Virus record (IMG/VR): IMGVR_UViG_3300020061_000004
Coordinates: 59,281 to 123,280 of that record
DNA: 64,000 nucleotides
From: a virus
Direction: 5' to 3' (one strand)
The notes under the pieces were generated by a model. The model was given only the letters and a program-made list of their open reading frames with translations, was not told where the DNA came from and did not search any database. Of this stretch, positions 3,648-23,030 are shown piece after piece (within the stretch, counting starts at the first letter, position 1; every line of letters starts with the position of its first letter). A program made the position numbers and the translations under genes.

Positions 3648-3658
3648 TTTATTTTAAT

Positions 3659-4117
3659 TTATATTCCTAAGAATGTTTTAATTGTACAAATTTCACTTCT
3701 AAATAAGTTTAGAATAGAAATGAGTGAGTATGTATTAGTTCCAACTTGACAAGGTGCAGCTGAGGCTGAAAGACATTGTAAGTCTATTGTTAGAAGCTGT
3801 GTAGCAATATTCCAAGCATTTACAGTTGATGTTAATGCAGTGAGAGCAGCATCCAGTCCACATATCTTATCTGTGTGAATCTGAAATAATCCCTTTACAT
3901 CTACATCAATAGGAACAGTTGTTAGACACTGGTTATTAAGATTAGTAACATTAATAGCCGTCTGAATATTTAGAATAGCCTGTGATATTAGATCAACAAT
4001 GTCATTGACATTAGCATCACAGTCGGGTTGTTGTTCTGTTGTAAGAAATACTAAATCCTTTCCTGTGTAAGGAACACATTCAGAAGGAATTATATTACCA
4101 CATGAATATCTTCTCAT
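3659..4117 (-). CDS. Cys-rich putative virion protein
   Basis: 152-aa ORF in the structural operon; SECVPY resembles the CVIY motif of its neighbours. Confidence 0.5.
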   Translation of the reverse strand: MRRYSCGNIIPSECVPYTGKDLVFLTTEQQPDCDANVNDIVDLISQAILNIQTAINVTNLNNQCLTTVPIDVDVKGLFQIHTDKICGLDAALTALTSTVNAWNIATQLLTIDLQCLSASAAPCQVGTNTYSLISILNLFRSEICTIKTFLGI

Positions 4118-4275
4118 TGTACTTTTTTATAAAGGAGGCTACAAATATATTCTGTTTGTTGTTTATCTTTGAAGAACTTGGCCTTTAGAAAGTCTTCATT
4201 AGGAAGTTCGCAGGTAATATCATAGCGATAGCTATTATATACAGCATTAGCATATTTAAGAAGTATCTTTAACAT
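4114..4275 (-). CDS. Small hypothetical protein (53 aa, not in the ORF track)
   Basis: MLKILLKYANAVYNSYRYDITCELP...KKVQ; fills the gap and overlaps both neighbours (ATGA overlap). Confidence 0.6.
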   Translation of the reverse strand: MLKILLKYANAVYNSYRYDITCELPNEDFLKAKFFKDKQQTEYICSLLYKKVQ

Positions 4276-4589
4276 TGTCCTGTGCTTAATATTACTGTTA
4301 CAAAACTTTTAATCTCGTCAAGCTGCTTTTTAAAATAGCAGACATTTGTTGGGTAGTTGAGTGTTGAAAGTAATATACCTCTATAGTTTACAAGCTGAGC
4401 TTGTGTGATATTAGGCATAGTTGTATATAACCCTTTATCCTTAAAGCATGTTACTTTTTCCAACCATGAATTTACCTGATCTAAGGTATATACACAATCT
4501 GATTGTTGTGTTTCATCAATGGGAGGAACAGAACGAGTAGCAAATGAGCGTGTAGCTATTGTAGCATTACCCGATGAACATCCACACAT
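4269..4589 (-). CDS. Hypothetical protein in the structural operon
   Basis: 106-aa ORF coupled to its neighbours. Confidence 0.6.
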   Translation of the reverse strand: MCGCSSGNATIATRSFATRSVPPIDETQQSDCVYTLDQVNSWLEKVTCFKDKGLYTTMPNITQAQLVNYRGILLSTLNYPTNVCYFKKQLDEIKSFVTVILSTGQC

Positions 4590-11839: not shown

Positions 11840-14515
11840 TTATTTCTTACCATCGTATTTGTTTTTGTTTATTTTGGCTACTTTTAACTTTTCATTCTCT
11901 ACTCTTTCACGAGATTGTAGCTCCTGTTGACGTACTTTTAGATCAGCAGTTTTCATCTGAGCATCTATTACAGCCTTTTCACGAGCTATAGTATTCTTCT
12001 CCCTATCCAATAGCAATTTCTGCTGTCCTACTTCTGCTGCAACAGAAAGCTTATCATATTCCAGAATATCCGGAGTCTGATCAGCGTCTTCATCTTTAAG
12101 ATTATCTGGTTGACGAGAGAAGGTTTGGATATAAGCGATCTTCTCTTTAGAAGCTCTATTCTTATCATTCTCATCAGCTTGGAATGCAAGGTCTGCTTGT
12201 TTCTGCTGAGCTTCACTCTGAATCTGCTGCTGTTGCATATCCATTTGCTGTTGATACTTCTGTTCATTACGAGCCATAGCAACTTCAAGCTGAGCTTTAA
12301 TTTCAGCAGGACTATTAGATGTAATAACAGTAGCAAGATCAACTGGTGATGCTCCAGTATTATTATTAGACATAAATAACTGACGAAGAGATTCAAGTTG
12401 TCTCATATCTTCTTGAGAGTTAGACACATATACGTGAAGATCAGATAATAGGAGTTCTGTGCCATTCATCTTCATGAAAGCTCTACTCATATCTGATTTA
12501 ACATAAGATACTGTTACATCTCTTTCCTTAGACTGTACATACTGTGCAATATCTAAGTTCATCTTTAGTACACGACGCTTATATTCAGAGAACCTAGTAA
12601 AGTAAGATTCTGTCTGAGCATATGACTGAGCAATAGCTTGTTGTGTACCTGTAGCTGTTTCTGAGGCTGCCACTGACCCAAGACGCTGAGGAGTAATACC
12701 TACTTGAGATAGGGCTCTTTGTTCAAAGAACTCCATTATCTTCATTCTGGACATCATCCTTGCAGACTCATCCATATCTACTTCTTTAGGCATCTGTCCA
12801 CCTGGATTAGCACCCTTCATATTCTGGGGTGATGTATCTACAAAGGTGACACCTAAACTCTTAGCAACTAGAAGGAACTTTTCATAGGCATTCTCTCCAC
12901 CCCAGTCTTTAATGTTTGTAAGCATATTCACATCCATGATAAGGAAGCGACCAATTTCACGTTGCATTGTCTGGTAGAGTTGGTTAGCTCCTACATTAAA
13001 TCCAATCTGCCAAGGCTTCATCAAGTCTACAAGAGACATTGATTGAGAGTTTCTAGCATTGAATATCTGTCCACATACTGGTAGCTTCGCATAGTAAGGA
13101 TTGAAATCTCCTCTAAACTGAAATGGAAGAGGACCAGCATTTACATAAATATCTTCTTTTAATTGTGTACCATGTTTACATATCTTAATCCCACGCCAAA
13201 TTTCATTTACCCATGTCCAAGACACAGTATTAATTTGATCATCATTCTCATAGATAGCACTATCAAGTTCTTTAAATCCAGGAGGTACTACAAATGTTTC
13301 ATCTACAAGTTGCTTAGTAACTAAGTTAGTTTCAGGATCGATAAAGGTTACTTTACCTATCTTCTTCTGTGATTTCCAATAGGCTTCTAATACTTTCAGA
13401 TAGCCTCTAGTATTAAGGAAGTATGGATTATGTGTACTAAGTTCTGTAGACATGAAGTCTCCAGTAAAGGTGGGAATATAGGGAGCAGCAGGATTGACAC
13501 CAAAGGTATCAGTCATAAGTTTACCATCTCCATAGTTCTGGTATGGTACTACAGCACCATATGCAATACCCTGTCCATCAGTTCCAGATATCTTACCCAT
13601 TAAGTCCTTAGAGAGTTCCAAGTCTTTAAGGGTAGACTTTTTCATCATATACCCATATCTATCTACAACATCAGATACAGTTAGATATATAATACGTCCT
13701 ACATAGTCACCTTCTTCAGCATGTTCTACTTCAGGACTCTTATGGAAGAATGTATTAACAGGGTTCCAAGTTTCTTGGTTATACCCATTTGATGTCAGAT
13801 AGAAGTGTCTAAATGCACGATCCGCAGTGAGCATATCTTCAAACTCTCTACGTTCTAGTTCAGGAAGATAGAAACGCTGCCTATCAAGTTCAAGTTGGTA
13901 TTGTCCCCATATCTCAGCAGTATCCTGCCAAGAGTATTTCATATACTTCTCTATTTCTGGAGGAGTAAGAGCCTGACGCTGTTGTTCTACTTGTTGTTGA
14001 TATTGCTGTTGTTCTTGAGGAGAATTAAATTGATCCTTATTAGGATTCAATCCCATTTGTGCAAGACGTAAGTTTACTTCATTATTAACCTCTTGCATTA
14101 CATGCTCTAGTAGGAGACGAGTCTTTTCACGAACATAACTATTTGTAGTATTTTCATCATAACCCTTTACTCTAAAGTTATCAGGGCGCTTCTGGTATTC
14201 ACCAGATAAAGTATTGATTACCTGAGAGATAATATCATAGTGACGTAAGTAGTTAGGAATTTCAAATTCTCTGGAAAGCTGATGTACCATATCAGCATAT
14301 TCATCCTGTTCTAGGTAGTGAGAGAAAATGAATTTACCCTTAACCATCTCATAGTTTTCTATAAGACTCATGTTAGAGTAGTATTGAAGAGTTCCTATTC
14401 TCTCCAAAGAGTCCATATTGTCCTTAATCCACTGAGCATTTTTCTTGGTTAAGGGAACCATTTGGGCTGGTAAGGCCACATTAGGGTTCGTATTAATTGC
14501 CGGACTTATATTCAT
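11840..14515 (-). CDS. Portal protein
   Basis: 891 aa after the terminase; LRHYDIISQVINTLSGEY, GITPQRLG and a Gln-rich coiled-coil C-terminus. Confidence 0.8.
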   Translation of the reverse strand: MNISPAINTNPNVALPAQMVPLTKKNAQWIKDNMDSLERIGTLQYYSNMSLIENYEMVKGKFIFSHYLEQDEYADMVHQLSREFEIPNYLRHYDIISQVINTLSGEYQKRPDNFRVKGYDENTTNSYVREKTRLLLEHVMQEVNNEVNLRLAQMGLNPNKDQFNSPQEQQQYQQQVEQQRQALTPPEIEKYMKYSWQDTAEIWGQYQLELDRQRFYLPELERREFEDMLTADRAFRHFYLTSNGYNQETWNPVNTFFHKSPEVEHAEEGDYVGRIIYLTVSDVVDRYGYMMKKSTLKDLELSKDLMGKISGTDGQGIAYGAVVPYQNYGDGKLMTDTFGVNPAAPYIPTFTGDFMSTELSTHNPYFLNTRGYLKVLEAYWKSQKKIGKVTFIDPETNLVTKQLVDETFVVPPGFKELDSAIYENDDQINTVSWTWVNEIWRGIKICKHGTQLKEDIYVNAGPLPFQFRGDFNPYYAKLPVCGQIFNARNSQSMSLVDLMKPWQIGFNVGANQLYQTMQREIGRFLIMDVNMLTNIKDWGGENAYEKFLLVAKSLGVTFVDTSPQNMKGANPGGQMPKEVDMDESARMMSRMKIMEFFEQRALSQVGITPQRLGSVAASETATGTQQAIAQSYAQTESYFTRFSEYKRRVLKMNLDIAQYVQSKERDVTVSYVKSDMSRAFMKMNGTELLLSDLHVYVSNSQEDMRQLESLRQLFMSNNNTGASPVDLATVITSNSPAEIKAQLEVAMARNEQKYQQQMDMQQQQIQSEAQQKQADLAFQADENDKNRASKEKIAYIQTFSRQPDNLKDEDADQTPDILEYDKLSVAAEVGQQKLLLDREKNTIAREKAVIDAQMKTADLKVRQQELQSRERVENEKLKVAKINKNKYDGKK

Positions 14516-14592: not shown

Positions 14593-16665
14593 TTACCTGG
14601 ATTGTTTATTATGCTTGAAGGTGAATGTACTCTGTACCTTTCCAAATCCTTGTCCTATCCTTACAAAGGGTGAAGCAAGCATTGGATCATGTACCTTCTT
14701 AGGCATTAGAGGATCAAAGGGTTGTTCAGCTATATTACTAACAGGATAGTATTTATCCAGATGCTTAGCAAATGCTAAAGCATGCCTGAAGGCCACTATA
14801 CGGTCATAGTTACCATCCTTTGGATCATACTTGATAATCTCCATTAGAAGTACAGGGTCCAGAATTCGGGTTATACCAAGCTTGTAGATGGGTTCTCTTG
14901 TAACAGGATGTGTTCCTATCTGTATCTGTTCCTTACAATATTCTATCATTAAGGACATACAGTAGTTAATATTAGCTACTGTTGGTGATAAGCCATATAC
15001 TTTACCACCTTGGTTAGCTCTAGTCTTAGGATTTATTTCTCTTGCAATATTAAATCCCTGTCCAAGCATATGTCCTTTATTCTTACGCTCAAAATACTGG
15101 ATGAATGTACCTGCTGCATTTTCTGGAAAGCATGTAGCATTATAATAATCCATTAACATCTCAACATCTTCATGCCAAGAATCCATTCTCTCAGGACGAG
15201 ATGCCAAAGATGCCACCACCATATTCTGATAGGTTTCACCAGATACATCTGTCATTCTCTTATAGATGAAGAGTGTCCCTAGAGAGTCAGACCAATCTGA
15301 TATATCATTATTATACGGGTCGGCTCCAGCTACATAAAGCCCCATAGGAGCATTTGTAATAGGTTCTTCCCATATTACTATAGGGCAATCTGTGCCTAAG
15401 TTTCCTTTTGTTGGAAACTCTGAGATTGGTAGATCAGTAGGATCAGCATTTTTCTGAATTACCCTACCATTAGAATCTCTATATAGACGTACATAACGTC
15501 CCTTAATTTGATTAGTTTGTAAGTATTCCAGATGCTGTCTAGCTGCTTCCAAAGGGAACGGATTACTACTACCTGATAGAAAGCATTCCTCTGGTGTCAG
15601 AGGATGATACATTACAGCCTTTAAATACTCTTGTTTATCTGGGTCTTTAGACTTGATGAGTCTTTCTTCTTCTATCTTTAAGCGAGCTTTCTCTTTATCT
15701 GATACCTTAATAGGAATTGTCTTAGCTTCTAATCCAATTCCTGTAAATCCTTTTGATAAGAGATAGTCATATAGATTGGAATCAGTCTTACAATCCATTC
15801 GGTAAAGACCAGACATGAATAAGCCAGTCTTCTTTCCTGTCTCTTCATTTACTACTTCTTGGAAGTTATTAGCTGTGGGATGTTCAAATACACGTTTAGC
15901 ATCATTACCTTTCTCAAAACTACCACCAGTACCCACTAGGATTGGAACACAACGCCAGCCGTATGGTGATAGGAACGCTGGTTTATGTGCTTCAAATACT
16001 GGTGAAAATAGATATTTACCAATTTCATCATATACTGCTGCCTTTGCTGTTGTACCAGCCGCGGCTTCTGTATTTGTACCTTCTTCTGCATTACGAATCA
16101 TTATATAACTCCACACATGGTCTTCATTATTCTTGTCTTTAAAACCAAGACGTAATGTTGGCTTCCTCCAGTCTTTATCTAGTTTAGGGATAGCCAATCC
16201 TTGCCACATATGTTTCCATCCAAAATCAATCTTCTCTGTAAGAAGCTTCATGTCTGCTCCATTACCCGCTACAAGTACACTCTGTGAATTCTCATATAAT
16301 ATAGCTGTCATACCAATATGAGAAGCTTCCCATTCTGATTTACCTCCCTGACGTAATCCCACTTCTATATATCCCTTCTGAGCTACACGAGCTTTCTCAA
16401 AATACTCAGCACGTTCCCATTCATTATCTCTAAGATCAGGTAGGGATGGTGTACGTACAATGTTTCCCCACTTATCCTTCTTATCCACAATAATATGCCA
16501 GTGATTCAAATGCCCATATAAAATTCCAGGAATATGAACACCACCAATAGTAATACCCCCCATGCACTTTTCAATTTCCCACTCTACAAGAGAAGTGAAA
16601 TCATCAGTACCGGGAGGTGGCAAAGTTTTTATATTTCTAAAAAACTCAGTTGTTTTAATCTGCAT
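14593..16665 (-). CDS. terL: Terminase large subunit
   Basis: RQGGKS Walker A, VYDEIG Walker B, GTGG coupling motif, nuclease motifs AGADPY and GNYDRI. Confidence 0.9.
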   Translation of the reverse strand: MQIKTTEFFRNIKTLPPPGTDDFTSLVEWEIEKCMGGITIGGVHIPGILYGHLNHWHIIVDKKDKWGNIVRTPSLPDLRDNEWERAEYFEKARVAQKGYIEVGLRQGGKSEWEASHIGMTAILYENSQSVLVAGNGADMKLLTEKIDFGWKHMWQGLAIPKLDKDWRKPTLRLGFKDKNNEDHVWSYIMIRNAEEGTNTEAAAGTTAKAAVYDEIGKYLFSPVFEAHKPAFLSPYGWRCVPILVGTGGSFEKGNDAKRVFEHPTANNFQEVVNEETGKKTGLFMSGLYRMDCKTDSNLYDYLLSKGFTGIGLEAKTIPIKVSDKEKARLKIEEERLIKSKDPDKQEYLKAVMYHPLTPEECFLSGSSNPFPLEAARQHLEYLQTNQIKGRYVRLYRDSNGRVIQKNADPTDLPISEFPTKGNLGTDCPIVIWEEPITNAPMGLYVAGADPYNNDISDWSDSLGTLFIYKRMTDVSGETYQNMVVASLASRPERMDSWHEDVEMLMDYYNATCFPENAAGTFIQYFERKNKGHMLGQGFNIAREINPKTRANQGGKVYGLSPTVANINYCMSLMIEYCKEQIQIGTHPVTREPIYKLGITRILDPVLLMEIIKYDPKDGNYDRIVAFRHALAFAKHLDKYYPVSNIAEQPFDPLMPKKVHDPMLASPFVRIGQGFGKVQSTFTFKHNKQSR

Positions 16666-16978
16666 CTCTCTGCATTCTATGAGGAATATTAGTATTCCCT
16701 TTTGCTTCAGCCTTAGTTGCTTCTTTTTCTCTTAATTTATCTATCACTTCCAAAAGAAGAAGATAGTTCTTCATGGTATCTTGTACAGATTTAATCTGTT
16801 GTTCAATAGAAGCCACTACTGTACGCATCATACCACCATTCTTCGTCTCCTTATAGTCCATCCTATCTGTTAGTTGATCTATAGGATTGATGTCAATGTA
16901 ATTACGCCATTTCTTTAATTGCTCTTCAGCCCAATCTAAATCTGATGTTATGTAACTATTAACTTTCTTTGCTGCCAT
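16655..16978 (-). CDS. Hypothetical protein, possible terminase small subunit
   Basis: Helical 107-aa ORF overlapping the terL start. Confidence 0.4.
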   Translation of the reverse strand: MAAKKVNSYITSDLDWAEEQLKKWRNYIDINPIDQLTDRMDYKETKNGGMMRTVVASIEQQIKSVQDTMKNYLLLLEVIDKLREKEATKAEAKGNTNIPHRMQRDAD

Positions 16979-17444
16979 CTATTTGGTTTTGAGCACTAGG
17001 TTGGATTTGAACCAACGGTTGTACGGTTTTGCAGACCGGTGCCTTGGACCCCTCAGCCACTAGTGCAGGTTTCTGTGCGAAATCTAAATACTTTGATATT
17101 AAAATCTTATTCTTAAGAACGTAATCAAATATCTTCTCCACTATATATCCTGTTATATATGCTCTTGTCTCACCTAGTTTCTCTACTTCAGTCTTCTCGA
17201 TGATGTAGTCTACAATGTGGGACACTTCATGTACAATGCAGTTGGGAGTGAGTCCATGTAACTGATAGAAGATGAAGTATTTATGATCAGGTGTATCTAG
17301 TGATAAACCATAATAGCCTCCTTCTGCAAGAGGCTCCATACCATACTTCTTAAGATATCTTGGTACTATCTTTTCAATCTCTTCATCTATAATAATAGTG
17401 AGGTTGAACTCAAAGATAGGTATCTTTATAGTTGTCTTATACAT
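16959..17444 (-). CDS. Putative zincin-like metalloprotein
   Basis: HEVSH (HExxH) motif followed by ETRAY. Confidence 0.5.
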   Translation of the reverse strand: MYKTTIKIPIFEFNLTIIIDEEIEKIVPRYLKKYGMEPLAEGGYYGLSLDTPDHKYFIFYQLHGLTPNCIVHEVSHIVDYIIEKTEVEKLGETRAYITGYIVEKIFDYVLKNKILISKYLDFAQKPALVAEGSKAPVCKTVQPLVQIQPSAQNQIDGSKES

Positions 17445-17454
17445 AGAAGATATT

Positions 17455-17529
17455 TGGAAGCGGGAGCGGGATTTGAACCCGCGACCTTTGAGTTATGAGC
17501 CCAACGAGCTACCTCTGCTCTACCCCGCT
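17455..17529 (-). tRNA. tRNA-Met(CAT), initiator-like
   Basis: AGCGGGGTAGAGCAGAGGTAGCTCGTTGGGCTCATAACTCAAAGGTCGCGGGTTCAAATCCCGCTCCCGCTTCCA; body resembles fMet tRNA, CCA encoded. Confidence 0.9.
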
Positions 17530-17535
17530 ATATTA

Positions 17536-17763
17536 TTAATCTTCTATTTGTGTTGCCTTATCAGCTAGATCAGTCTCAAGTTCATCACGATAGTTTTCAA
17601 ACTTCTTGAGAAGTTCTTCATCACTCCAGTTATAATTACCTGTTTGGGGGCGCATCACATGCACAATATGCTGTGAGATACTATACTGGGGAAACAACTC
17701 TACTATCTCTACGAAATGATGAAAAATCTGTTGCTTGATCTGAGTTTTTTGTTTATTGCTCAT
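17536..17763 (-). CDS. Hypothetical protein
   Basis: 75-aa ORF coupled to the upstream gene. Confidence 0.6.
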   Translation of the reverse strand: MSNKQKTQIKQQIFHHFVEIVELFPQYSISQHIVHVMRPQTGNYNWSDEELLKKFENYRDELETDLADKATQIED

Positions 17764-18181
17764 TGGTTTTTGTTTTGTATGCTGTCCATTTAAGTTCCAT
17801 ATTGATGTTGTTATTCTGATTAAAGGCTAACAACTCTTTATCCTTGCAAGTACAATTTGATAAGTTATCAAAATTGCAACAATCAATTCCACAATTTGCT
17901 TCTAGTGAAGCTGTCTTTCTAGTGATTGTACATCCACACATAATACAATGTTCATCAAATCTATCTGTCTTATATCCAGTAGATACTGCATTTGAACTAT
18001 TGAATGGACACGTTGCACATATAAATCTTCTTCTTGCTATTTCTGCTTGTTCATCTTCAGGAAGGATATCATATTGCAATTTCACTTGATTCACTATCCC
18101 CTCCACTATCAAGTCTGCATTCTGTACTACTGTCGGCAGTAGTTTTACATATTCTATTAGTCCTTTTAGCATAAGCTTCAT
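17753..18181 (-). CDS. Cys-rich putative Zn-binding protein
   Basis: ICATCPF, HCIMCGC and further Cys clusters. Confidence 0.6.
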   Translation of the reverse strand: MKLMLKGLIEYVKLLPTVVQNADLIVEGIVNQVKLQYDILPEDEQAEIARRRFICATCPFNSSNAVSTGYKTDRFDEHCIMCGCTITRKTASLEANCGIDCCNFDNLSNCTCKDKELLAFNQNNNINMELKWTAYKTKTNEQ

Positions 18182-18512
18182 AATACTGTGTTGCTAATGT
18201 ATTCCTCTGTATTAAGGCTTTTCTAAGTTTGCCATAGTTTACTTCGAGGAGCAGGTCTTTTGTTGATTCTTTATACCTGATAGACTTCTTTATATTCCTA
18301 ATCTTATTAATTGTGGACTTTATAAAGTAGTCTATCTTACGTTTACTTGTTGTTATTGTTCCTAAGTACTTGATACTCACCGATGTAGACTCAAGGCCAC
18401 TTAGTTTTTTCCTTACTTCTTTCCAATAAAAATCATTCACACTATCAACAATCTTCTCTTCTATTCCCATCTCACGGGATACTATCTTGCTGATTACTTG
18501 AATAGTTTTCAT
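18069..18512 (-). CDS. Putative HU/IHF-like DNA-binding protein
   Basis: Basic; helix-turn-helix start then VSIKYLGTI strand as in the IHF-like proteins of crAss-like phages. Confidence 0.5.
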   Translation of the reverse strand: MKTIQVISKIVSREMGIEEKIVDSVNDFYWKEVRKKLSGLESTSVSIKYLGTITTSKRKIDYFIKSTINKIRNIKKSIRYKESTKDLLLEVNYGKLRKALIQRNTLATQYYEAYAKRTNRICKTTADSSTECRLDSGGDSESSEIAI

Positions 18513-18853
18513 TAGCTATTATCTATTTTAATCAGTACACCAATCACAGGATTAACAGGAAAGTCTAAGTCTGCATTAAGTGTGTAGTCTTTAGAATCTA
18601 CAGGACGCACTAACATTCCAAACTTCTTAAGTTTACTCATTGTATTCTTCAGACTATCCTCTGTTTTGAGAATATTTGAAGAAAGAATAAGGTCTTTAGT
18701 TTTTCTATTAATCCTATATACCATGAAATAAGCAAGGACTGTGAGTTCAGTATCAGAAAGTCGTATATTCTTGAGTAAACAAAAGATACCAATTACTTTC
18801 TTTGCCTGTTCCACCTTGCTATTGGTTTTAAGTTTGATTTTTACAAGCTGCAT
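18512..18853 (-). CDS. Hypothetical winged-helix-like protein (start MQLVKI)
   Basis: ORF downstream of a promoter; LKNTMSKLKKFGMLVR pattern. Confidence 0.5.
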   Translation of the reverse strand: MQLVKIKLKTNSKVEQAKKVIGIFCLLKNIRLSDTELTVLAYFMVYRINRKTKDLILSSNILKTEDSLKNTMSKLKKFGMLVRPVDSKDYTLNADLDFPVNPVIGVLIKIDNS

Positions 18854-18910
18854 TTCCTTAATTTCTACACAAAGATAAGTAATTGATTTCAATTAACCAA
18901 ATCTTTTTCA

Positions 18911-19396
18911 CTAATTATGATTATTTGCTGTAATTAAGTCTCTATATCTCTCATTTACAATCTTAGCCTGAGCTGATGAAGGTATTCTTCCTGATTCTAA
19001 TAGGGAAAGGATACTTCTGAAGTAAGGAGCAGGGGATATTTGTAATATCTTCTTACAACGCTTCTTATATTCCTCTATAACTCCTTGTATTCTAGTGGTA
19101 TCCTTTGATTTATTCTTCTTTACTCTTCTGGTTGATGAAGGTTTCTTCATGAAAGAAGCTATTGTTCTTTTCTCATGTGCTTTTGAATGACAATCTGCAC
19201 AAAGAGTAACTAAAGCTTTCAAAGGATATTCCCAAGGACTCTTATCTTTGATGTAATAGAGATGATGAACATGCAACATACAATTTGTAGCCTTACAATT
19301 CCTGCATGTATACTTATCACGGTTTAAAACCTGAACCCTAACTACATCAACCCAGCGTGTATCAAGTAATAATATTTTATATTCTTCTTTTGTCAT
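18911..19396 (-). CDS. HNH endonuclease (start probably MTKEEY)
   Basis: RDKYTCRNC...LHVHH...LVTLCADCH. Confidence 0.8.
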   Translation of the reverse strand: MTKEEYKILLLDTRWVDVVRVQVLNRDKYTCRNCKATNCMLHVHHLYYIKDKSPWEYPLKALVTLCADCHSKAHEKRTIASFMKKPSSTRRVKKNKSKDTTRIQGVIEEYKKRCKKILQISPAPYFRSILSLLESGRIPSSAQAKIVNERYRDLITANNHN

Positions 19397-19476
19397 AATA
19401 TTCTCTGTTGAGTATGCAATACTACGGAAAATTATTGACATTATGCCACTTTTTTCAATATTTATTTTTATATAAT

Positions 19477-19504
19477 ATAAAAACCCCTCACTTGGAGGGG
19501 CTTG
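19477..19504 (-). terminator. Intrinsic terminator
   Basis: AAGCCCCTC-CAAGT-GAGGGGTTTT. Confidence 0.7.
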
Positions 19505-19524
19505 CAACAAAAGAAGGTAGCAGA

Positions 19525-19671
19525 TTAGACTTTTTTAGCATCTGCTTCGACAGTAGAAGCTACTTCTTCAACCTTTTCAATAATCGGCTCGATCTTTTCC
19601 TTGTTATTACGGTAAATTAATATACCTGCAATGAACAAACCAAGAGATACAATAGCAACGAGTGGAACCAT
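19525..19671 (-). CDS. Small single-pass membrane protein (48 aa, not in the ORF track)
   Basis: MVPLVAIVSLGLFIAGILIYRNNKEKIEPIIEKVEEVASTVEADAKKV, with its own promoter (about 19690-19721) and terminator. Confidence 0.65.
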   Translation of the reverse strand: MVPLVAIVSLGLFIAGILIYRNNKEKIEPIIEKVEEVASTVEADAKKV

Positions 19672-19721
19672 ATGTTTCAAATTTAGATACAAAGATAATA
19701 ACTTCTTAGGAAATTACCAAA

Positions 19722-19795
19722 TGGCACGGGAGGCTTGATTCGAACAAACATCAAAGGTTTTGGAGACCTCTATTCTACCATTGAACTACTCCCGT
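19722..19795 (-). tRNA. tRNA-Trp(CCA)
   Basis: Cloverleaf, anticodon loop CTCCAAA, CCA end. Confidence 0.9.
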
Positions 19796-19796
19796 A

Positions 19797-19871
19797 TGGG
19801 GTGAAAGGACGGTAATGATCCGTCTTCTATGCCTTCACAGGGCACCGCATCACCTTAATGCTTCAGACACC
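19797..19871 (-). tRNA. tRNA-His(GTG), atypical acceptor stem
   Basis: Loop CTGTGAA, G-1:C73, CCA end; acceptor GTGTCTG/CTTTCAC has three mismatches. Confidence 0.8.
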
Positions 19872-19880
19872 ATGTATTAT

Positions 19881-19953
19881 GTACCCGATCATGGGAACGA
19901 TCCACATTCTCCTGCTTCAAAGGCAGGCATAATACCTTTATACTACTCGGGTA
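19881..19953 (-). tRNA. tRNA-Gln(TTG)
   Basis: Stem CCTGC/GCAGG, loop CTTTGAA. Confidence 0.8.
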
Positions 19954-19957
19954 TAAG

Positions 19958-20028
19958 TTGGGGAAGATTGAATCGAACAACCACCAAAGGTGTCAGAGAC
20001 CTTTGTACTACCATTATACGATTCCCCA
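19958..20028 (-). tRNA. tRNA-Gln(CTG)
   Basis: Stem AAGGT/ACCTT, loop CTCTGAC, Gln-type body. Confidence 0.85.
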
Positions 20029-20074
20029 AAATGAAGGTTCCTTACTCAATGAAGTATGCCTACAACCCAAAATG

Positions 20075-20147
20075 TGGTACAGGTTAGTTATGATCTAACT
20101 CCTCGGGATTTTCAGTCCCGCGCTTCTACCAAGTTAGCTTCTGTACC
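20075..20147 (-). tRNA. tRNA-Phe(GAA)
   Basis: Stem CGGGA/TCCCG, loop CTGAAAA. Confidence 0.9.
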
Positions 20148-20152
20148 ATAAG

Positions 20153-20226
20153 AGCCCTAGCCGGAACTCGAAGCCGGTCTGTTCCGCATTACAAGTGCGG
20201 CGCTGCACCATATCAGCATCTCGGGC
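20153..20226 (-). tRNA. tRNA-Thr(TGT)
   Basis: Stem CCGCA/TGCGG, loop CTTGTAA. Confidence 0.85.
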
Positions 20227-20275
20227 AGTTGACATTTGATTTTCACATAAAACAAAGTTTCCAAACAAAACATCG

Positions 20276-20376
20276 CTAATGGGGTACGATTCGAACGTAC
20301 ATGCAGAGGTTATTAATTCCCTATATCTGCACCACCGAGAAAAGGAGGCGAGTCTGCCAAGTTCCAACACCCATTA
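20276..20376 (-). ncRNA. Aberrant class II tRNA-like RNA (about 30-nt variable arm, loop TTTTCTC)
   Basis: Perfect acceptor TAATGGG/CCCATTA, T-arm GTACG-TTCGAAT-CGTAC, Leu/Ser-type D region, long TGCAGA...TCTGCA arm. Confidence 0.7.
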
Positions 20377-20381
20377 ATCTG

Positions 20382-20453
20382 CGGGGAAGGTATGGATCGA
20401 ACATACGACCTGAGAGTTAACAGCTCCCTGCTCTACCGCTGAGCTACTTCCCC
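20382..20453 (-). tRNA. tRNA-Asn(GTT)
   Basis: Canonical cloverleaf, loop CTGTTAA. Confidence 0.9.
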
Positions 20454-20510
20454 AAAATAGGGTGTAAGGGTTCTTCCTTACACAGGGTGCGCTTACCCCA
20501 CTTCCTATTG

Positions 20511-20586
20511 CCGGCAATACGGGATTTGAACCCGTGGTCTTCCCGTAGACAGCGGGACAGGGACAACCAGACTCCCCTAAATGCCG
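20511..20586 (-). tRNA. tRNA-Asp(GTC)
   Basis: Stem TCCCG/CGGGA, loop CTGTCTA (pyrimidine at 37), G73. Confidence 0.85.
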
Positions 20587-20594
20587 AATAAAAG

Positions 20595-20665
20595 TCTAGC
20601 TTGTCTGAATCGAACAGCTCTTCATGCTTCCAAGGCACGGGTGCTACCATCACACCCCAAACTAG
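20595..20665 (-). tRNA. tRNA-Pro(TGG)
   Basis: Stem CGTGC/GCATG, loop CTTGGAA; weak T-stem. Confidence 0.75.
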
Positions 20666-20697
20666 AAATAAAAAACCCTCCTTTAAGGGGAGGGCTT
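20666..20697 (-). terminator. Attenuator terminator of tRNA operon A
   Basis: AAGCCCTCC-CCTTAAA-GGAGGGTTTTTTATTT directly ahead of tRNA-Pro. Confidence 0.85.
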
Positions 20698-20721
20698 GTA
20701 TGAACACGCTTGAAAATTTAG

Positions 20722-20802
20722 TTATCGTGATATAATATAGCCTCTCCCAACGATTGTATCGGGTTGAAAATTAAAGGTATTATTATGCCAATTCTGAATC
20801 AT
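20722..20802 (-). CDS. Leader peptide A (26 aa) MIQNWHNNTFNFQPDTIVGRGYIISR
   Basis: Hand translation; codons 3-16 encode only Q, N, W, H, T, F, P, D, matching the downstream tRNAs. Confidence 0.85.
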   Translation of the reverse strand: MIQNWHNNTFNFQPDTIVGRGYIISR

Positions 20803-20806
20803 ACAG

Positions 20807-20838
20807 CAAAGATAAGAAGAATATTTGATATTACCAAA
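20807..20838 (-). promoter_or_regulatory. Bacteroidota-type promoter of tRNA operon A
   Basis: TTTGG...TATCTTTG, ending 4 nt before the leader ATG. Confidence 0.85.
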
Positions 20839-20857
20839 TTTCTTATAAAAATAAATG

Positions 20858-20940
20858 TGGGAGCTGATGGAGTTGAACCACCCGAGTCCTAAGACAGCAG
20901 ATTTACAGTCTGCCCCGCTACCCCTACGGTATAAACTCCC
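20858..20940 (-). tRNA. tRNA-Tyr(GTA)
   Basis: Loop CTGTAAA, long variable arm. Confidence 0.9.
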
Positions 20941-21026
20941 AAATAGCTACCCTCGGTATTTCCGAGACCAGCTTACAATATAGGGTCACTCACTTAAGAG
21001 GCTCACTAGTTTCCTAGTTACTTTAG

Positions 21027-21113
21027 AGGAAGGTGTGGGATTTGAACCCACGGAACTTTTACATCCTCCGGTTTTCAAGACCGGTGCAATCAGCCAGACT
21101 CTGCCAACCTTCC
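21027..21113 (-). tRNA. tRNA-Ser(TGA)
   Basis: Loop CTTGAAA, long variable arm. Confidence 0.9.
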
Positions 21114-21187
21114 TAAAGCTCACCCCGTAGGTGAGCAGCGCAATTAAGGCTTTGCGATGCCATTACAGCCACCCTTTGGGCAGTGTG

Positions 21188-21272
21188 AGGAGAGTAGAAG
21201 ATTCGAACTTCTGGGGCTTTAACACCCAACACTTTAGCAAAGTGTTACGATAAACCTCTCTGACAACTCTCC
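21188..21272 (-). tRNA. tRNA-Ser(GCT)
   Basis: Loop TTGCTAA, long variable arm. Confidence 0.9.
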
Positions 21273-21277
21273 TTATG

Positions 21278-21357
21278 TATCCCTAACATGATTTGAACAT
21301 GCACCCCGAAGGAGCAGATTTTAAGTCTGCCGCGTCTACCAGTTTCGCCATAGAGAT
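21278..21357 (-). tRNA. tRNA-Leu(TAA)
   Basis: Loop CTTAAAA, Leu-type D arm. Confidence 0.9.
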
Positions 21358-21363
21358 AAGTTG

Positions 21364-21448
21364 TAGGTATAGTAAGAGTCGAACTTACACGCCCATTACA
21401 GGCATCAGTTTCTAAGACTGACGTGTCTACCAATTCCACCATATACCC
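21364..21448 (-). tRNA. tRNA-Leu(TAG)
   Basis: Loop CTTAGAA, Leu-type D arm. Confidence 0.9.
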
Positions 21449-21450
21449 AT

Positions 21451-21488
21451 AAAATAAAAACCCCCGCTATCCGAATTAGCAGGGGAGT
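21451..21488 (-). terminator. Attenuator terminator of tRNA operon B
   Basis: ACTCCCCTGCTAATTCGGATAGCGGGGGTTTTTATTTT directly ahead of tRNA-Leu(TAG). Confidence 0.85.
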
Positions 21489-21528
21489 GACGATATTGTC
21501 TTTTACGAACGCTTCTTTATCACATACT

Positions 21529-21591
21529 TTACCCCTTACTATCGAGTGATAGATAACTTAAGGAGAGCAAATATGAGTTTAAATTCTTCAT
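21529..21591 (-). CDS. Leader peptide B (20 aa) MKNLNSYLLSLSYLSLDSKG; an in-frame upstream ATG lies at 21657
   Basis: Hand translation; codons 6-16 encode only Leu, Ser, Tyr, matching the downstream tRNAs. Confidence 0.85.
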   Translation of the reverse strand: MKNLNSYLLSLSYLSLDSKG

Positions 21592-21665
21592 TTTAATTAG
21601 GGGTCTCAGGAAAGATATAGAAACAATCGTGTGTACAATAAATCTATATCTATCCATCAACACAA

Positions 21666-21697
21666 CAAAGGTAATACAAATAATTGATATTACCAAA
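21666..21697 (-). promoter_or_regulatory. Bacteroidota-type promoter of tRNA operon B
   Basis: TTTGG...TACCTTTG. Confidence 0.85.
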
Positions 21698-21705
21698 TTT
21701 AAGTG

Positions 21706-21778
21706 TAGTAATGATGGGAGTTGAACCCACTACCCCGGAGGTATCAGCTCCGTACTCTAACCGTTGAGCTACACTACT
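21706..21778 (-). tRNA. tRNA-Ile(GAT)
   Basis: Stem CGGAG/CTCCG, loop CTGATAC. Confidence 0.9.
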
Positions 21779-21780
21779 AG

Positions 21781-21852
21781 TGGACTGAGATGGAATTGAA
21801 CCATCGACTTGCACATTATGAGTGTGCTGCTCTACCCCTGAGCTATCAGTCC
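21781..21852 (-). tRNA. tRNA(CAT), probably Ile2 (lysidine) rather than elongator Met
   Basis: Loop CTCATAA; GGAC- acceptor like bacterial Ile2; next to tRNA-Ile; the leader contains ATA and no internal ATG. Confidence 0.75.
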
Positions 21853-21859
21853 ATAAAAG

Positions 21860-21931
21860 TACTCTGTGACGGTTACGATCCGTCTTCCACGCTTTGAAGG
21901 AGCGTTATCCTAGCCACTAGACGAACAGAGC
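21860..21931 (-). tRNA. tRNA-Glu(TTC)
   Basis: Glu-type body, stem ACGCT/AGCGT, loop CCTTCAA (C at 33). Confidence 0.8.
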
Positions 21932-21938
21932 ATATATG

Positions 21939-22010
21939 AGCACCAGTGGGTAATCGAAACCCAATCCGCGCATTGGAAGTGCGCTATAATAGCCGTTATA
22001 CGACTGATGC
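21939..22010 (-). tRNA. tRNA-Gly(TCC)
   Basis: Loop CTTCCAA, U73. Confidence 0.9.
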
Positions 22011-22012
22011 AT

Positions 22013-22087
22013 TGGTAGAGATACCAAGAATCAAACTTGGGTCTAGGGATTAGAAGGCCCTCGTTCTATTCATTGAACTACATCTCT
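22013..22087 (-). tRNA. tRNA-Arg(TCT)
   Basis: Loop CTTCTAA, CCA end. Confidence 0.9.
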
Positions 22088-22088
22088 A

Positions 22089-22164
22089 TGGAGGACACAG
22101 AAAGAGTCAAACTTTCGTTCCCTGCTTCGTAGGCAGGAGTTCTATTCAGCTGAACTATGCGTCC
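22089..22164 (-). tRNA. tRNA-Arg(ACG)
   Basis: Loop CTACGAA, CCA end. Confidence 0.9.
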
Positions 22165-22235
22165 TAATACTGGGCCAGAGTATACAGGTTACTGTCCCTC
22201 TATGAATTTCACATAGTTACCCCAGTAGAATACTG

Positions 22236-22308
22236 TCTCCCCGTTCGGAATCGAACCGAACCCCACGGTTTAAAAGACCGTTGCCTACAACCAGTTTGCT
22301 ACAAGGAG
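22236..22308 (-). tRNA. tRNA-Lys(TTT)
   Basis: Stem ACGGT/ACCGT, loop CTTTTAA. Confidence 0.85.
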
Positions 22309-22313
22309 TTTGT

Positions 22314-22353
22314 AAAAACAAAAACCCGAAGCTGCTAGTTGCGGCTCCGGGCT
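22314..22353 (-). terminator. Attenuator terminator of tRNA operon C
   Basis: AGCCCGGAGCCGC-AACTA-GCAGCTTCGGGTTTTTGTTTTT directly ahead of tRNA-Lys. Confidence 0.85.
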
Positions 22354-22375
22354 CTGTTAAAAGAAATTGTTAGTA

Positions 22376-22477
22376 TTATCCTAAATCAATATCTTGTAGA
22401 CATATAGCTCCGGAGCCAGGTTTTCTTCCTGCCTCGCGAATAATTTCTATGCCACCGATATTGATAACTAAATTCAT
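22376..22477 (-). CDS. Leader peptide C (33 aa) MNLVINIGGIEIIREAGRKPGSGAICLQDIDLG
   Basis: Hand translation; 12 of codons 7-19 encode I, G, E, R, K, matching the downstream tRNAs. Confidence 0.85.
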   Translation of the reverse strand: MNLVINIGGIEIIREAGRKPGSGAICLQDIDLG

Positions 22478-22481
22478 AATG

Positions 22482-22513
22482 CAAAGATATGTTAAATATT
22501 TGAAACTACCAAA
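22482..22513 (-). promoter_or_regulatory. Bacteroidota-type promoter of tRNA operon C
   Basis: TTTGG...TATCTTTG, ending 4 nt before the leader ATG. Confidence 0.85.
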
Positions 22514-22746
22514 TCTTGTTTTAAAAAGGCTATTACTTCTTTAAGTTCTTGTTCAGGAGTAGATGGCCTTATCATAAATTCTCTTTCCCGATTTGTTACC
22601 ATATATCCAAAAACATTTGAGGATGCTAGGAAACCCTTTGAAATATTAAGAAATGATGGAAGGTGTGTTCCAGACATAAATCCATAATCTCCTCTACTAT
22701 GAGAGAGTCCTGTCTCCTTATCTATATAAGCTAATACAGCATTCAT
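22492..22746 (-). CDS. Hypothetical protein
   Basis: 84-aa ORF. Confidence 0.55.
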   Translation of the reverse strand: MNAVLAYIDKETGLSHSRGDYGFMSGTHLPSFLNISKGFLASSNVFGYMVTNREREFMIRPSTPEQELKEVIAFLKQDLVVSNI

Positions 22747-23030
22747 TATACAAAGATTAAACTACACAATGCTTTTGATATCCATACAATCTCACCTTTA
22801 ACTGGTTCTTGATCAATCTCAATAGATATATGAGTGCCATCAATCCCTGCAAACTCTCCATTATCTAAGGGTGTCATATTCCAATGGCTTATCTCACGTT
22901 TATCATTGAGGATGGTATAATAGCTACCATCCTCTTTTATTAATCTTATGCCGGGACAGAGATATTTCTTTGGAATATATCTATCCCTCCAATCTCCCTG
23001 TATCATCAGAGTCACTCGTGTGGGTCTCAT
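22746..23030 (-). CDS. Hypothetical protein
   Basis: 94-aa ORF, TAATG coupling. Confidence 0.55.
   Translation of the reverse strand: MRPTRVTLMIQGDWRDRYIPKKYLCPGIRLIKEDGSYYTILNDKREISHWNMTPLDNGEFAGIDGTHISIEIDQEPVKGEIVWISKALCSLIFV

Follow-up and report, generated by a model that had tools for sequence, protein, structure and literature searches.

Why should an intrinsic terminator lie directly in front of a phage tRNA block and downstream of that block's own promoter, with a short open reading frame (ORF) in between? This arrangement, here called unit A, is found in the 64,000-nucleotide stretch of an uncultured phage that we analyzed (the window). We consider it likely that unit A is a ribosome-mediated, or leader-peptide, transcription attenuator of nine phage tRNA genes, with the expression and the switching inferred. 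Four observations form the shown basis of this reading: the anatomy of the unit, its nonrandom codon roster, the covariation of such rosters with tRNA block content in relatives, and the alternative RNA pairings.

Anatomy of unit A and its two sister units

The earlier note, made from the sequence alone, had proposed an attenuator at 20666-20838. The parts are present there on the minus strand, in the order promoter, 26-codon ORF, hairpin with U-tract, and tRNA-Pro.

20807-20838, minus strand: promoter A, with the -33 element TTTG at 20835-20838 and the -7 element TATCTTTG at 20807-20814
20722-20802, minus strand: leader ORF A, 26 codons plus stop, MIQNWHNNTFNFQPDTIVGRGYIISR
20755-20796, minus strand: regulatory codons 3 to 16 of leader A, encoding QNWHNNTFNFQPDT
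20758-20777, minus strand: region 1, within the regulatory codons, pairing with region 2 in the full-length minimum-energy fold
20739-20751, minus strand: region 2 (GUUGGGAGAGGCU), codons 18 to 21, with region 1 and the terminator 5' arm as alternative partners
20689-20697, minus strand: region 3, the terminator 5' arm (AAGCCCUCC), from the hairpin fold
20666-20681, minus strand: region 4, the terminator 3' arm, with GGAGGGUUU at 20673-20681, running into the U-tract UUUUUUAUUU at 20666-20675
19722-20665, minus strand: tRNA block A, with Pro(tgg), Asp(gtc), Asn(gtt), a tRNA-like element of about 101 nt, Thr(tgt), Phe(gaa), Gln(ctg), Gln(ttg), His(gtg), and Trp(cca)

The promoter pattern TTTG-N19-21-TAnnTTTG, which we take to be the Bacteroidota-type promoter consensus, has 13 matches in the window against 1.41 expected, and none of 100 shuffles reached 13; three of the 13 matches precede the three leaders A, B, and C. 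In unit A, 4 nt separate the -7 box from the ATG. From this short distance and the Bacteroidota-type consensus, we infer that the message is probably leaderless or nearly so. The ORF reads ATG ATT CAG AAT TGG CAT AAT AAT ACC TTT AAT TTT CAA CCC GAT ACA through codon 16 and continues from codon 17 with ATC GTT GGG AGA GGC TAT ATT ATA TCA CGA TAA, stopping about 55 nt before tRNA-Pro. The terminator hairpin has a predicted energy of -13.0 kcal/mol and is followed by U6, and tRNA-Pro begins 1 nt later. Block A contains nine tRNAs of eight isotypes. All were called by ARAGORN at default settings except His(gtg) at 19797-19870, which is weaker: it was called only at a relaxed ARAGORN threshold and is supported by an Rfam tRNA match of 31.4 bits against a cutoff of 29.

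Attenuator-type parts in this same order occur three times in the window, as units A, B, and C. The two sister units and their blocks, with tRNAs called by ARAGORN, are as follows.

21449-21697, minus strand: sister unit B, with promoter at 21666-21697, ORF at 21529-21657, and terminator stem at 21461-21485
20857-21448, minus strand: tRNA block B, with Leu(tag), Leu(taa), Ser(gct), Ser(tga), and Tyr(gta)
22309-22513, minus strand: sister unit C, with promoter at 22482-22513, ORF at 22376-22477 (MNLVINIGGIEIIREAGRKPGSGAICLQDIDLG), and terminator stem at 22324-22352
21705-22308, minus strand: tRNA block C, with Lys(ttt), Arg(acg), Arg(tct), Gly(tcc), Glu(ttc), Met/Ile2(cat), and Ile(gat)

The ORF of unit B has an internal ATG at 21591 (...MKNLNSYLLSLSYLSLDSKG).

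Codon rosters of the leaders

The earlier note had claimed that 14 consecutive codons of leader A sample all eight amino acids of the downstream tRNA array, and this held for the codons, the coordinates, and the tRNA calls. Codons 3 to 16 encode only Q, N, W, H, T, F, P, and D, which are the eight isotypes of block A (14/14). No other run of in-set residues in any of the six frames (128000 positions in the window) is as long as these 14; the runner-up is 8, and the number of runs of 14 expected by chance in the window is about 2.3e-3. When the best 10-codon window of each leader was scored against its own block, leaders A and B reached 10/10 and leader C reached 9/10.

Two observations weigh against the match. 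Strictly cognate phage anticodons are lacking for some roster codons, and codons such as ACC and CCC would require four-way reading by U34 tRNAs. Leader C is a counterexample in that it contains one Val and one Ala codon, yet the 123-kb record has no such tRNAs.

Leader rosters follow block content in related phages

Relatives were collected through the large terminase, independently of the leader sequence. The terminase was used because blastn was useless for finding them: with 19500-22800 as the query against deposited phages, it returned only tRNA genes of unrelated phages, covering no more than 7% of the query. The search gave 135 records, of which 94 remained after the removal of 41 duplicates, and these yielded 25 leader/terminator/tRNA-block units at 15 loci. 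Blocks in relatives were called with ARAGORN -ps90, as the defaults miss several noncanonical tRNAs. These calls are still incomplete: in L001, tRNAs for Lys, Ser(gct), and Gln(ttg) were missed and all three were read by eye, with Rfam support only for Gln (6505-6575). The 25 units omit leaders for which the terminator finder returned no hairpin (leader C of L001, the first leader of L095, and that of L072) and, because -ps90 called fewer than three isotypes in their blocks, the Leu/Ser/Tyr units of L005 and L006.

Across the 25 units, the best 10-codon window scored 10/10 in 17, 9/10 in four, 8/10 in one, 7/10 in two, and 3/10 in one. The mean leader score was 4.29 for the leader's own block compared to 0.74 for dissimilar blocks (442 comparisons), the own block outscored the sibling block in all 24 within-locus comparisons, and the observed total was reached in none of 20000 label permutations. 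Isotypes present in a block had a codon in the block's own leader in 171 of 175 cases, compared to 162 of 325 for isotypes absent from the block (odds ratio, 43). For the split codon boxes (Leu, Ser, Arg, Gln-CAG, and Ile-ATA), the corresponding counts were 37/38 when the tRNA was present and 68/162 otherwise. As the 25 units are phylogenetically related, the P values overstate their independence.

Individual cases show the same covariation. The L063 block lacks Phe and Trp, and its leader, TNHTTNQPNPQD, lacks F and W. Blocks without Asn and Asp but with Arg(acg) are found in L006, L069, and L071, and the leaders there (TRQHTQFWFPT, FQHTRFWFTQPT) lack N and D and have a single CGT or CGC codon. 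In L095, L017, and L081, the blocks include tRNAs for Met, Lys, Ile, and Val, and the leaders include M, K, I, and V; in L090, where these tRNAs are missing, the leader has neither I nor V and no M apart from the start. When similar but nonidentical blocks were compared, the leader whose block had the extra tRNA contained more of the matching codons in 105 cases, fewer in 19, and an equal number in 14. These results show that leader rosters gain and lose amino acids together with their blocks across relatives. Besides leader C of the window, there are two counterexamples: the L120 leader reaches only 3/10 against its present block, and in L005 a leader of the same type with its terminator has no tRNA behind it. 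The same design is found in Cellulophaga phage phi17:2, which is in culture and shares only about 31% identity with the window phage in its terminase.

A finer link proposed earlier did not extend to the relatives. Both Gln codons of leader A match the two Gln tRNAs (CTG and TTG), as claimed, but this is true of the window and is no rule elsewhere. Covariation with the Gln isoacceptors had been suggested by L001 and L002, which have CAA only and a TTG tRNA only, and it was rejected by the wider set: L069 has a CTG tRNA and no CAG codon, and seven leaders have CAG without a CTG tRNA.

Alternative pairings and folding of the proposed switch

The earlier note had also claimed that GGGAGAGGCT (20739-20748) can pair with the terminator arm with one bulged A. 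This held both in folding and against shuffled sequences. The segment pairs with AGCCCTCCC as GGGAG(A)GGCU / AGCC-CUCCC, and this antiterminator is the minimum-energy structure once the terminator 3' arm is omitted. The duplex of region 2 with the terminator arm has an energy of -12.5 kcal/mol, compared to -6.8 +/- 1.9 kcal/mol for 300 dinucleotide shuffles (P = 0.010); complementarity also beats shuffles in units B (P = 0.023) and C (P = 0.007).

Terminators diverge too far between phages for an alignment and hence for formal covariation methods such as RNAalifold or pair counts; for the relatives, we compared duplex energies with shuffles unit by unit instead. An upstream segment was complementary to the terminator 5' arm at P <= 0.05 (300 dinucleotide shuffles) in 17 of the 25 units, with a mean z of -2.71; in the other 8 of 25, the antiterminator complementarity was no better than in shuffles. 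The paired antiterminator sequences differ from phage to phage. The partner segment begins a median of 4 nt past the roster, lies downstream of it in 21 of the 25 units, and in all 25 ends inside the ORF or no more than 15 nt past the start of the stop codon.

Ribosome positions were modeled by folding the transcript as it would be before the 3' arm is made and recording how far the terminator 5' arm is engaged with the upstream segment. In unit B, the modeled engagement is 0.89 to 0.97 with the ribosome at codons 4 to 12, 0.03 to 0.04 at codons 15 to 18, and 0.04 without a ribosome, the last being the expected behavior if region 2 is sequestered in an untranslated leader. In unit A, it is 0.88 with the A site on codons 1 to 14 and 0.32 to 0.44 on codons 16 to 26, and the truncated transcript still favors the antiterminator with the ribosome at the stop codon (0.77) and without a ribosome, where the 2:3 pairing forms (0.88). 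The 1:2 pairing of unit A is present in the full-length minimum-energy fold. At full-length equilibrium the terminator has a probability of 0.94, and it falls below 0.5 only for stalls at codons 5 to 8 and 14. Under the model, termination of unit A with no ribosome, or with one at the stop codon, would rest on kinetics or on the full-length equilibrium. Since kinetics determine the result, equilibrium folding can inform on unit A only in part. In the folding check proposed in the earlier note, both the terminator and the antiterminator form, but the unit A model retains the antiterminator without a ribosome in the truncated transcript. The attenuator itself, as claimed, is supported by its sequence parts and by the comparison with relatives; translation of the ORF is inferred and switching is only modeled.

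Proposed circuit

In the circuit that we propose, transcription would begin at the Bacteroidota-type promoter, probably giving a leaderless or nearly leaderless message, and a ribosome would read the 26-codon ORF while RNA polymerase proceeds. If all of the Gln, Asn, Trp, His, Thr, Phe, Pro, and Asp codons of the roster are decoded quickly, the ribosome would move onto region 2 (codons 18 to 21) and cover it, the hairpin and U-tract would form, and transcription would stop 1 nt before tRNA-Pro. If the ribosome has to wait at any of codons 3 to 14 for a scarce aminoacyl-tRNA, it would cover region 1 and leave region 2 free; region 2 would then pair with the terminator 5' arm, and the polymerase would enter the tRNA block. 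Because the products of the block are the very molecules whose shortage would stall the ribosome, such a circuit would place tRNA supply under negative feedback. For the Leu/Ser/Tyr set and the Lys/Arg/Gly/Glu/Met/Ile set, units B and C, respectively, may work in the same way. We infer that the ORF is translated, that ribosome and polymerase are coupled, which way the switch works in vivo, and that the signal is tRNA supply instead of amino acid supply. The last of these can only be inferred, because amino acid starvation would trip the same switch, with no benefit. Loss or cleavage of host tRNAs, or a mismatch in codon usage, may be the event that changes tRNA supply.

Alternative explanations

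One alternative is that unit A consists of a plain promoter and an intrinsic terminator that separates transcription units, with an untranslated ORF whose composition reflects base composition or ancestry. There are no expression data, short ORFs starting with ATG are common in AT-rich spacers, the transcript of each block must end somewhere so that the hairpin could serve the upstream unit, and the shared ancestry of the relatives inflates the statistics. Against this, a terminator that follows its own promoter and sits 1 nt ahead of the genes is sensible only if it is conditional. Moreover, the roster is specific to its own block (24/24 sibling comparisons; 0/20000 permutations), the run of 14 is unique, the rosters follow block content across lineages whose terminator sequences differ, and an equivalent of region 2 is found at the 3' end of the ORF in 25/25 units. 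We therefore regard this explanation as highly improbable. The possibility that the ORF encodes a functional microprotein behind a leaky terminator, with a tRNA-matched composition that helps the peptide to be made efficiently when phage tRNAs become available, is extremely unlikely. In the cultured relative phi17:2, one ORF of this kind carries the annotation of a hypothetical protein (gp077), but composition is kept and sequence is not: among leader A and its homologues in L001 (MINNWHNTFTFTPNQPDRARVYCAN) and L002 (MINNWHNTFNNFTPDQQDLDEGTLCQNK), the order is shuffled after MI(Q/N)NWHN. The leaders of different blocks share no common motif, and the ORF lies upstream of the tRNAs that it would need and overlaps the switch.

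A closer rival accepts a true attenuator but holds that it gauges amino acid supply or general translation stress, for example, to time the production of tRNAs during infection, and not these tRNAs specifically. Classical attenuators answer to the level of aminoacyl-tRNA and so to amino acid, synthetase, and tRNA alike. The closest regulated tRNA array, the Anabaena trn operon, answers to general translational stress (PMC8421152), and the lack of a strictly cognate phage anticodon for some roster codons would also fit such a sensor. On the other hand, extra tRNA would bring no relief from amino acid starvation, and a general sensor would have no need to name 171 of 175 block isotypes or both sub-boxes of Leu, Ser, and Arg (37/38), nor to be built separately for each block. 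This alternative seems unlikely to us.

Comparison with known regulatory systems

The proposed attenuator of tRNA genes resembles the attenuators of amino acid operons in having a short ORF with regulatory codons (translated, in the case of ORF A, by inference only), mutually exclusive 1:2, 2:3, and 3:4 pairings (for unit A, 1:2 in the full-length fold), and an intrinsic terminator before the regulated genes, with a stall favoring the antiterminator, which for unit A is a model result. Enterobacterial multivalent leaders include those of ilvGMEDA (Ile/Leu/Val) and thr (Thr/Ile), and the trp, his, leu, and pheA leaders are also well known (cf. PMC1183508, PMC3082878). Unit A differs in that it would regulate phage tRNA genes and not biosynthetic enzymes, its product would feed back directly on the sensor, and its promoter is probably of the Bacteroidota type with a leaderless or nearly leaderless start. 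The earlier claim that its roster is much broader than those of classic biosynthetic attenuators held: the roster of unit A covers eight amino acids and that of unit B three, and rosters in relatives reach 13 (L095, L017, and L081), compared to one to three in classical leaders. The classical scope, genes for amino acid biosynthesis or transport, is not met, as nine tRNA genes lie downstream. Unit A would thus work like a leader-peptide attenuator but outside the known scope of such attenuators, because the regulated genes are tRNAs.

An Rfam scan of 16500-23000 at E <= 1 gave no leader family (His, Trp, Thr, Leu, etc.) and no T-box; the only matches were of the tRNA type, plus three chance matches to plastid or viral tRNA-like families. 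T-box riboswitches, like unit A as proposed here, monitor the state of specific tRNAs and switch between terminator and antiterminator. Unlike unit A, they bind uncharged tRNA directly via a specifier codon without any ORF, and they control synthetase or amino acid genes with one tRNA per element. The trn operon of Anabaena sp. PCC 7120 is a long tRNA array that is induced under translational stress (PMC8421152, PMC10272220). It resembles the system proposed here as a silent accessory tRNA array that is turned on when translation is impaired. Its expression is governed at the level of the promoter by direct repeats and the RHH repressor TrcR, and a single switch serves the whole cellular array, in contrast to the isotype-matched sensors proposed here in a virus; the main text of PMC8421152 contains no occurrence of "leader peptide," "attenuat," or "terminator." In drug-responsive leaders (erm, vmlR, bmrCD, etc.), a stall in an upstream ORF likewise remodels the downstream RNA, but there the antibiotic and the nascent peptide cause the stall and the peptide sequence matters, whereas here composition alone is kept and tRNA supply is the proposed cause. 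We found no account of leader-peptide control of tRNA genes in the open-access literature that we searched, supplements excluded.

Implications for phage tRNA arrays

Attenuation has been in textbooks for fifty years, and in the literature searched its targets elsewhere are limited to genes for amino acid synthesis or transport and for drug resistance. Here this logic is applied, with switching inferred, to viral tRNA genes and with rosters far broader than those of classical leaders. If the reading is correct, it would explain how a phage with a large tRNA array is spared the production of tRNAs for which it has no need. It would also offer a direct, isotype-resolved readout of tRNA limitation during infection and a mechanistic tie between phage tRNA arrays and the depletion or cleavage of host tRNAs. 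The leaders would be compact natural parts for building sensors of the decoding speed of chosen codons. Because the same design is found in a cultured pair, Cellulophaga baltica and its phage phi17:2, these predictions are directly testable.

A bolder reading, for which we see as much reason to hesitate as to accept, is that a broad group of phages of Bacteroidota-like hosts, from this soil phage to phi17:2, runs its tRNA genes as demand-driven circuits. The translated roster of each block would poll every isotype of that block (up to 13 amino acids) and open the block when any one of them becomes limiting, so that loss of host tRNAs, through host shut-off or anticodon-nuclease defenses, would be detected and repaired set by set. 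If this is true, no earlier case would be known of tRNA genes being controlled by sensors of tRNA supply, as they would be by these leaders, and the phages would carry a built-in counterdefense switch.

Virus record and tRNA array

The source record of the window is linear, comprises 123,280 bases and is estimated to be 76% complete. Its large terminase shares 45% identity with the counterpart in Leptolyngbya phage Lbo-JY46 and about 31% with the counterparts in Cellulophaga phages phi17:2 and phi4:1; the terminases of crAss-like phages are more distant relatives. Besides the 22 tRNA genes found by default ARAGORN, a 23rd, tRNA-His(gtg) at 19797-19870, appeared at a relaxed ARAGORN threshold and scored 31.4 bits with the Rfam tRNA model. 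An Rfam tRNA search of the virus's own genome record (18 matches) found no tRNAs outside the array. The tRNA-Cys gene (16991-17066, minus strand) lies inside the last ~36 codons of a 161-codon ORF on the same strand (16959-17444), and therefore tRNA excision and translation of the message would compete.

The earlier note had proposed an attenuator at 20666-20838. These positions turned out to be the exact bounds of one unit, unit A, consisting of a promoter, a leader ORF and a terminator.

Features of the array and of unit A (window coordinates)
14593-16665, minus strand: large terminase
16991-22308, minus strand: phage tRNA genes, 22 by default ARAGORN
20835-20838, minus strand: upstream promoter box of unit A, TTTG
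20807-20814, minus strand: -7 box of unit A, TATCTTTG
20802, minus strand: ATG of unit A, with the -7 box 4 nt upstream
20722-20802, minus strand: leader ORF A, 26 codons, MIQNWHNNTFNFQPDTIVGRGYIISR, stop codon at 20722-20724
20673-20697, minus strand: terminator hairpin of unit A, -13.0 kcal/mol
20666-20675, minus strand: U-tract of unit A, UUUUUUAUUU
20665, minus strand: first base of tRNA-Pro

Block A, the tRNA block behind this unit, reads Pro, Asp, Asn, a tRNA-like element of ~101 nt, Thr, Phe, Gln(ctg), Gln(ttg), His, and Trp. In the tRNA-like element (20276-20376, minus strand), the acceptor and T arms are intact and the variable arm is very long. Counterparts are present in two related phage loci, L001 (about 6195-6297) and L002 (6191-6286, called by ARAGORN as a 96-nt tRNA-Asp gtc), and the anticodon loop is different in all three copies. 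It is possible that this element is not a decoder.

Leader codons and tRNA blocks within the window

Codons 3 to 16 of leader A are confined to Q, N, W, H, T, F, P, and D, each of which occurs. This 14-residue run is unique in the six frames of the window; the runner-up has 8 residues, and the expected number of 14-residue runs is about 2.3e-3. The layout is repeated twice more, upstream of unit A. In unit B, ...MKNLNSYLLSLSYLSLDSKG and a terminator precede Leu(tag), Leu(taa), Ser(gct), Ser(tga), and Tyr, and in unit C, MNLVINIGGIEIIREAGRKPGSGAICLQDIDLG and a terminator precede Lys, Arg(acg), Arg(tct), Gly, Glu, a CAT tRNA, and Ile(gat). The pattern TTTG-N19-21-TAnnTTTG, which we take to be a promoter consensus of the Bacteroidota type, has 13 matches in the window against 1.41 expected, a number reached by none of 100 shuffles, and three of the matches stand ahead of the three leaders. 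Another match (19690-19721, minus strand) lies where block A ends, immediately past tRNA-Trp; the unit that it heads is a 55-codon ORF at 19525-19692. Such promoters also occur in Lbo-JY46 (PP438436.1) at 1790-1830, 5350-5390, and 6080-6115. The host on record for that phage is cyanobacterial, and its assignment may therefore merit re-examination.

Comparison with related phages

Relatives were gathered through the terminase, to keep the sample unbiased towards leaders, from IMG/VR and metagenome scans with the terminase protein and a four-sequence profile; 135 records became 94 once de-duplicated. By script, each hairpin with a T-run at most 70 nt upstream of a same-strand tRNA was counted as the head of a unit. 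The block of the unit comprised the tRNAs behind this terminator and ended at another terminator of this kind or where a gap exceeded 1 kb, and blocks of fewer than 3 isotypes were discarded. The outcome was 25 units across 15 loci, the window's three included. All ATG ORFs in the 200 nt preceding a terminator were considered, and the 10-codon window that scored highest against a given block's isotype set gave the unit's score for that block. Against its own block the score was 10/10 in 17 units, 9/10 in 4, 8/10 in 1, 7/10 in 2, and 3/10 in 1. The mean binomial score was 4.29 for the own block versus 0.74 for dissimilar blocks (442 comparisons, the best of which reached 4.33), the own block outscored a sibling block in all 24 within-locus comparisons, and the observed total was matched by none of 20,000 block-label shuffles. 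When the leader was chosen blind to composition, as the longest ORF or, for ties, the one nearest the terminator, it contained a codon for 171 of 175 isotypes in the block versus 162 of 325 absent from it; for split codon boxes, these values were 37/38 and 68/162. The units share descent, and the p-values are not independent probabilities.

The co-variation of leader and block is the part of the evidence that shared ancestry cannot explain. L063 has a block of Pro, Asp, Asn, Thr, Gln, and His, and its leader core, TNHTTNQPNPQD, lacks F and W. Lbo-JY46 and two other loci (L069 and L071) have Pro, Thr, Phe, Gln, His, Arg(acg), and Trp; N and D are absent from their leader cores (TRQHTQFWFPT, FQHTRFWFTQPT, and QFQHTRFWFTPT, respectively), and each leader has one CGN-box Arg codon. 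In a clade whose array is arranged differently, a large block (Ala, Asp, Asn, Trp, Thr, Arg, Met, Lys, Ile, Phe, Val, Gly, and Cys) comes with leaders such as MMMNNWFNIIDTAFATRNCGKVGI... in L095, and in L090, where the block lacks Met, Lys, Ile, and Val, the leader MKRNNWFNNAAAFTTTDCGKG... lacks I, V, and an internal M. Among pairs of similar but non-identical blocks, which overlap, the codon of the extra tRNA is more numerous in the leader of the block that has this tRNA in 105 cases, less numerous in 19, and equally numerous in 14. Residue order differs among the leaders of the window, L001, and L002 beyond MI(Q/N)NWHN, although these are closest relatives, and selection therefore acts on composition.

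The cultured Cellulophaga phage phi17:2 (NC_021798.1) has the same design as the window. There, MKIQRLHLQELEQPIISGGTGV and a terminator precede Pro, Glu, Gln, His, Leu, Leu, and Arg(acg), and gp077, annotated as a hypothetical protein (...TKTGITVIDKTKGARAYLGDTVIG), and a terminator precede Ala, Lys, Ile, Gly, Met, Asp, Thr, Val, Arg, Met, Tyr, and further tRNAs.

Several side observations concern these arrays. By eye, the annotated phi17:2 CDS gp078 (13335-13436, minus strand) resembles a sequence of the tRNA-Ser(TGA) type rather than a protein gene. Homing-endonuclease-like ORFs lie inside the arrays of L005 (4200-4817, with a GIY...YIG-like start by eye) and Lbo-JY46 (3562-4389, annotated as a homing endonuclease). 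Leaders of blocks with 11 to 13 isotypes (L095, 3531-3689; L021, 4017-4169; L017, 786-953; L081, 186-351) have no promoter of their own and directly follow tRNA-Glu; they would be translated from a tRNA-containing precursor transcript.

Predicted RNA switch

In unit A, GUUGGGAGAGGCU (codons 18 to 21) has two alternative partners. In the full-length minimum-energy fold it pairs with the upstream roster codons, those matching the block's isotypes, and in the minimum-energy fold without the 3' arm it pairs with the 5' arm of the terminator (9 bp, one bulged A). Overall, complementarity to the 5' arm exceeds that of shuffles in 17 of 25 units, with a mean z of -2.71; the three units of the window are among the 17 (p = 0.010, 0.023, and 0.007). 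The paired antiterminator sequences vary between phages. The partner segment occupies a constant position: its start lies a median of 4 nt past the roster (downstream of it in 21/25 units), and in 25/25 it ends inside the ORF or at most 15 nt past the start of the stop codon (median, 9 nt before the stop).

We modeled the ribosome as a 30-nt mask on a transcript whose 3' arm is not yet made. For unit A, upstream engagement of the 5' arm was 0.88 with the A site on codons 1 to 14 and 0.32 to 0.44 on codons 16 to 26. Unit B is predicted to switch much as in textbook cases, with engagement of 0.89 to 0.97 on codons 4 to 12, 0.03 to 0.04 on codons 15 to 18, and 0.04 without a ribosome. For unit C, at full-length equilibrium, the terminator probability fell to 0.08 to 0.13 with the ribosome on codons 11 to 13. 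The same model exposes a weakness of unit A: engagement is 0.88 without a ribosome and 0.77 with one at the stop codon, in which case the off state would depend on timing or else on the equilibrium reached at the end (terminator probability, 0.94).

Observations against the reading and classification

Some results do not fit the match of leader and block. In L120, a leader of the Pro/Gln/His/Arg/Leu/Ser/Tyr type (MNTFLRPSLSLYSQHLYAGQGNSV) now stands ahead of only Pro, Val, and Gly (6230-6660), a mismatch that resembles the outcome of a deletion joining the beginning of one block with the end of the block after it. An orphan leader in L005 (4872-5040) has a promoter, a block-A-type ORF (MKNLVSRFWHQQTTQPCFTYD...), and a terminator but lacks a tRNA gene downstream; next come another hairpin and a protein gene. 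In the window, leader C (with its block at 21705-22477, minus strand) retains one GTT (Val) and one GCA (Ala) codon, and neither tRNA is found anywhere in the window's record; tRNA-Val(tac) and tRNA-Ala(tgc) are present at the end of block C in L001 (5008-5160) and L002 (4716-4863). For the ACC and CCC codons of leader A, the phage encodes no strictly cognate anticodon.

A T-box riboswitch identity for unit A was rejected on the basis of an Rfam scan of 16500-23000 at E <= 1, which also gave no match to a curated leader. The nearest published conditionally expressed tRNA array that we found, the Anabaena trn operon, is controlled at the promoter by the repressor TrcR. The full-text literature searched, which left out most subscription journals and supplements, held no account of leader-peptide control of tRNA genes.

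The eight-amino-acid roster described in the earlier note is confirmed. Its remark that both Gln codons, CAG and CAA, match the two Gln tRNAs is correct for the window and does not apply generally among the relatives. The attenuator interpretation has strong comparative support, no experimental support, and no RNA data. Unit A is predicted to work like the multivalent leader-peptide attenuators of amino acid operons and meets most of their sequence-level criteria, but it regulates tRNA genes, which lie outside the classical scope of that family. As inferred from sequence and comparison, unit A is very likely a leader-peptide attenuator of tRNA genes and would be a new variation on a known type of control.
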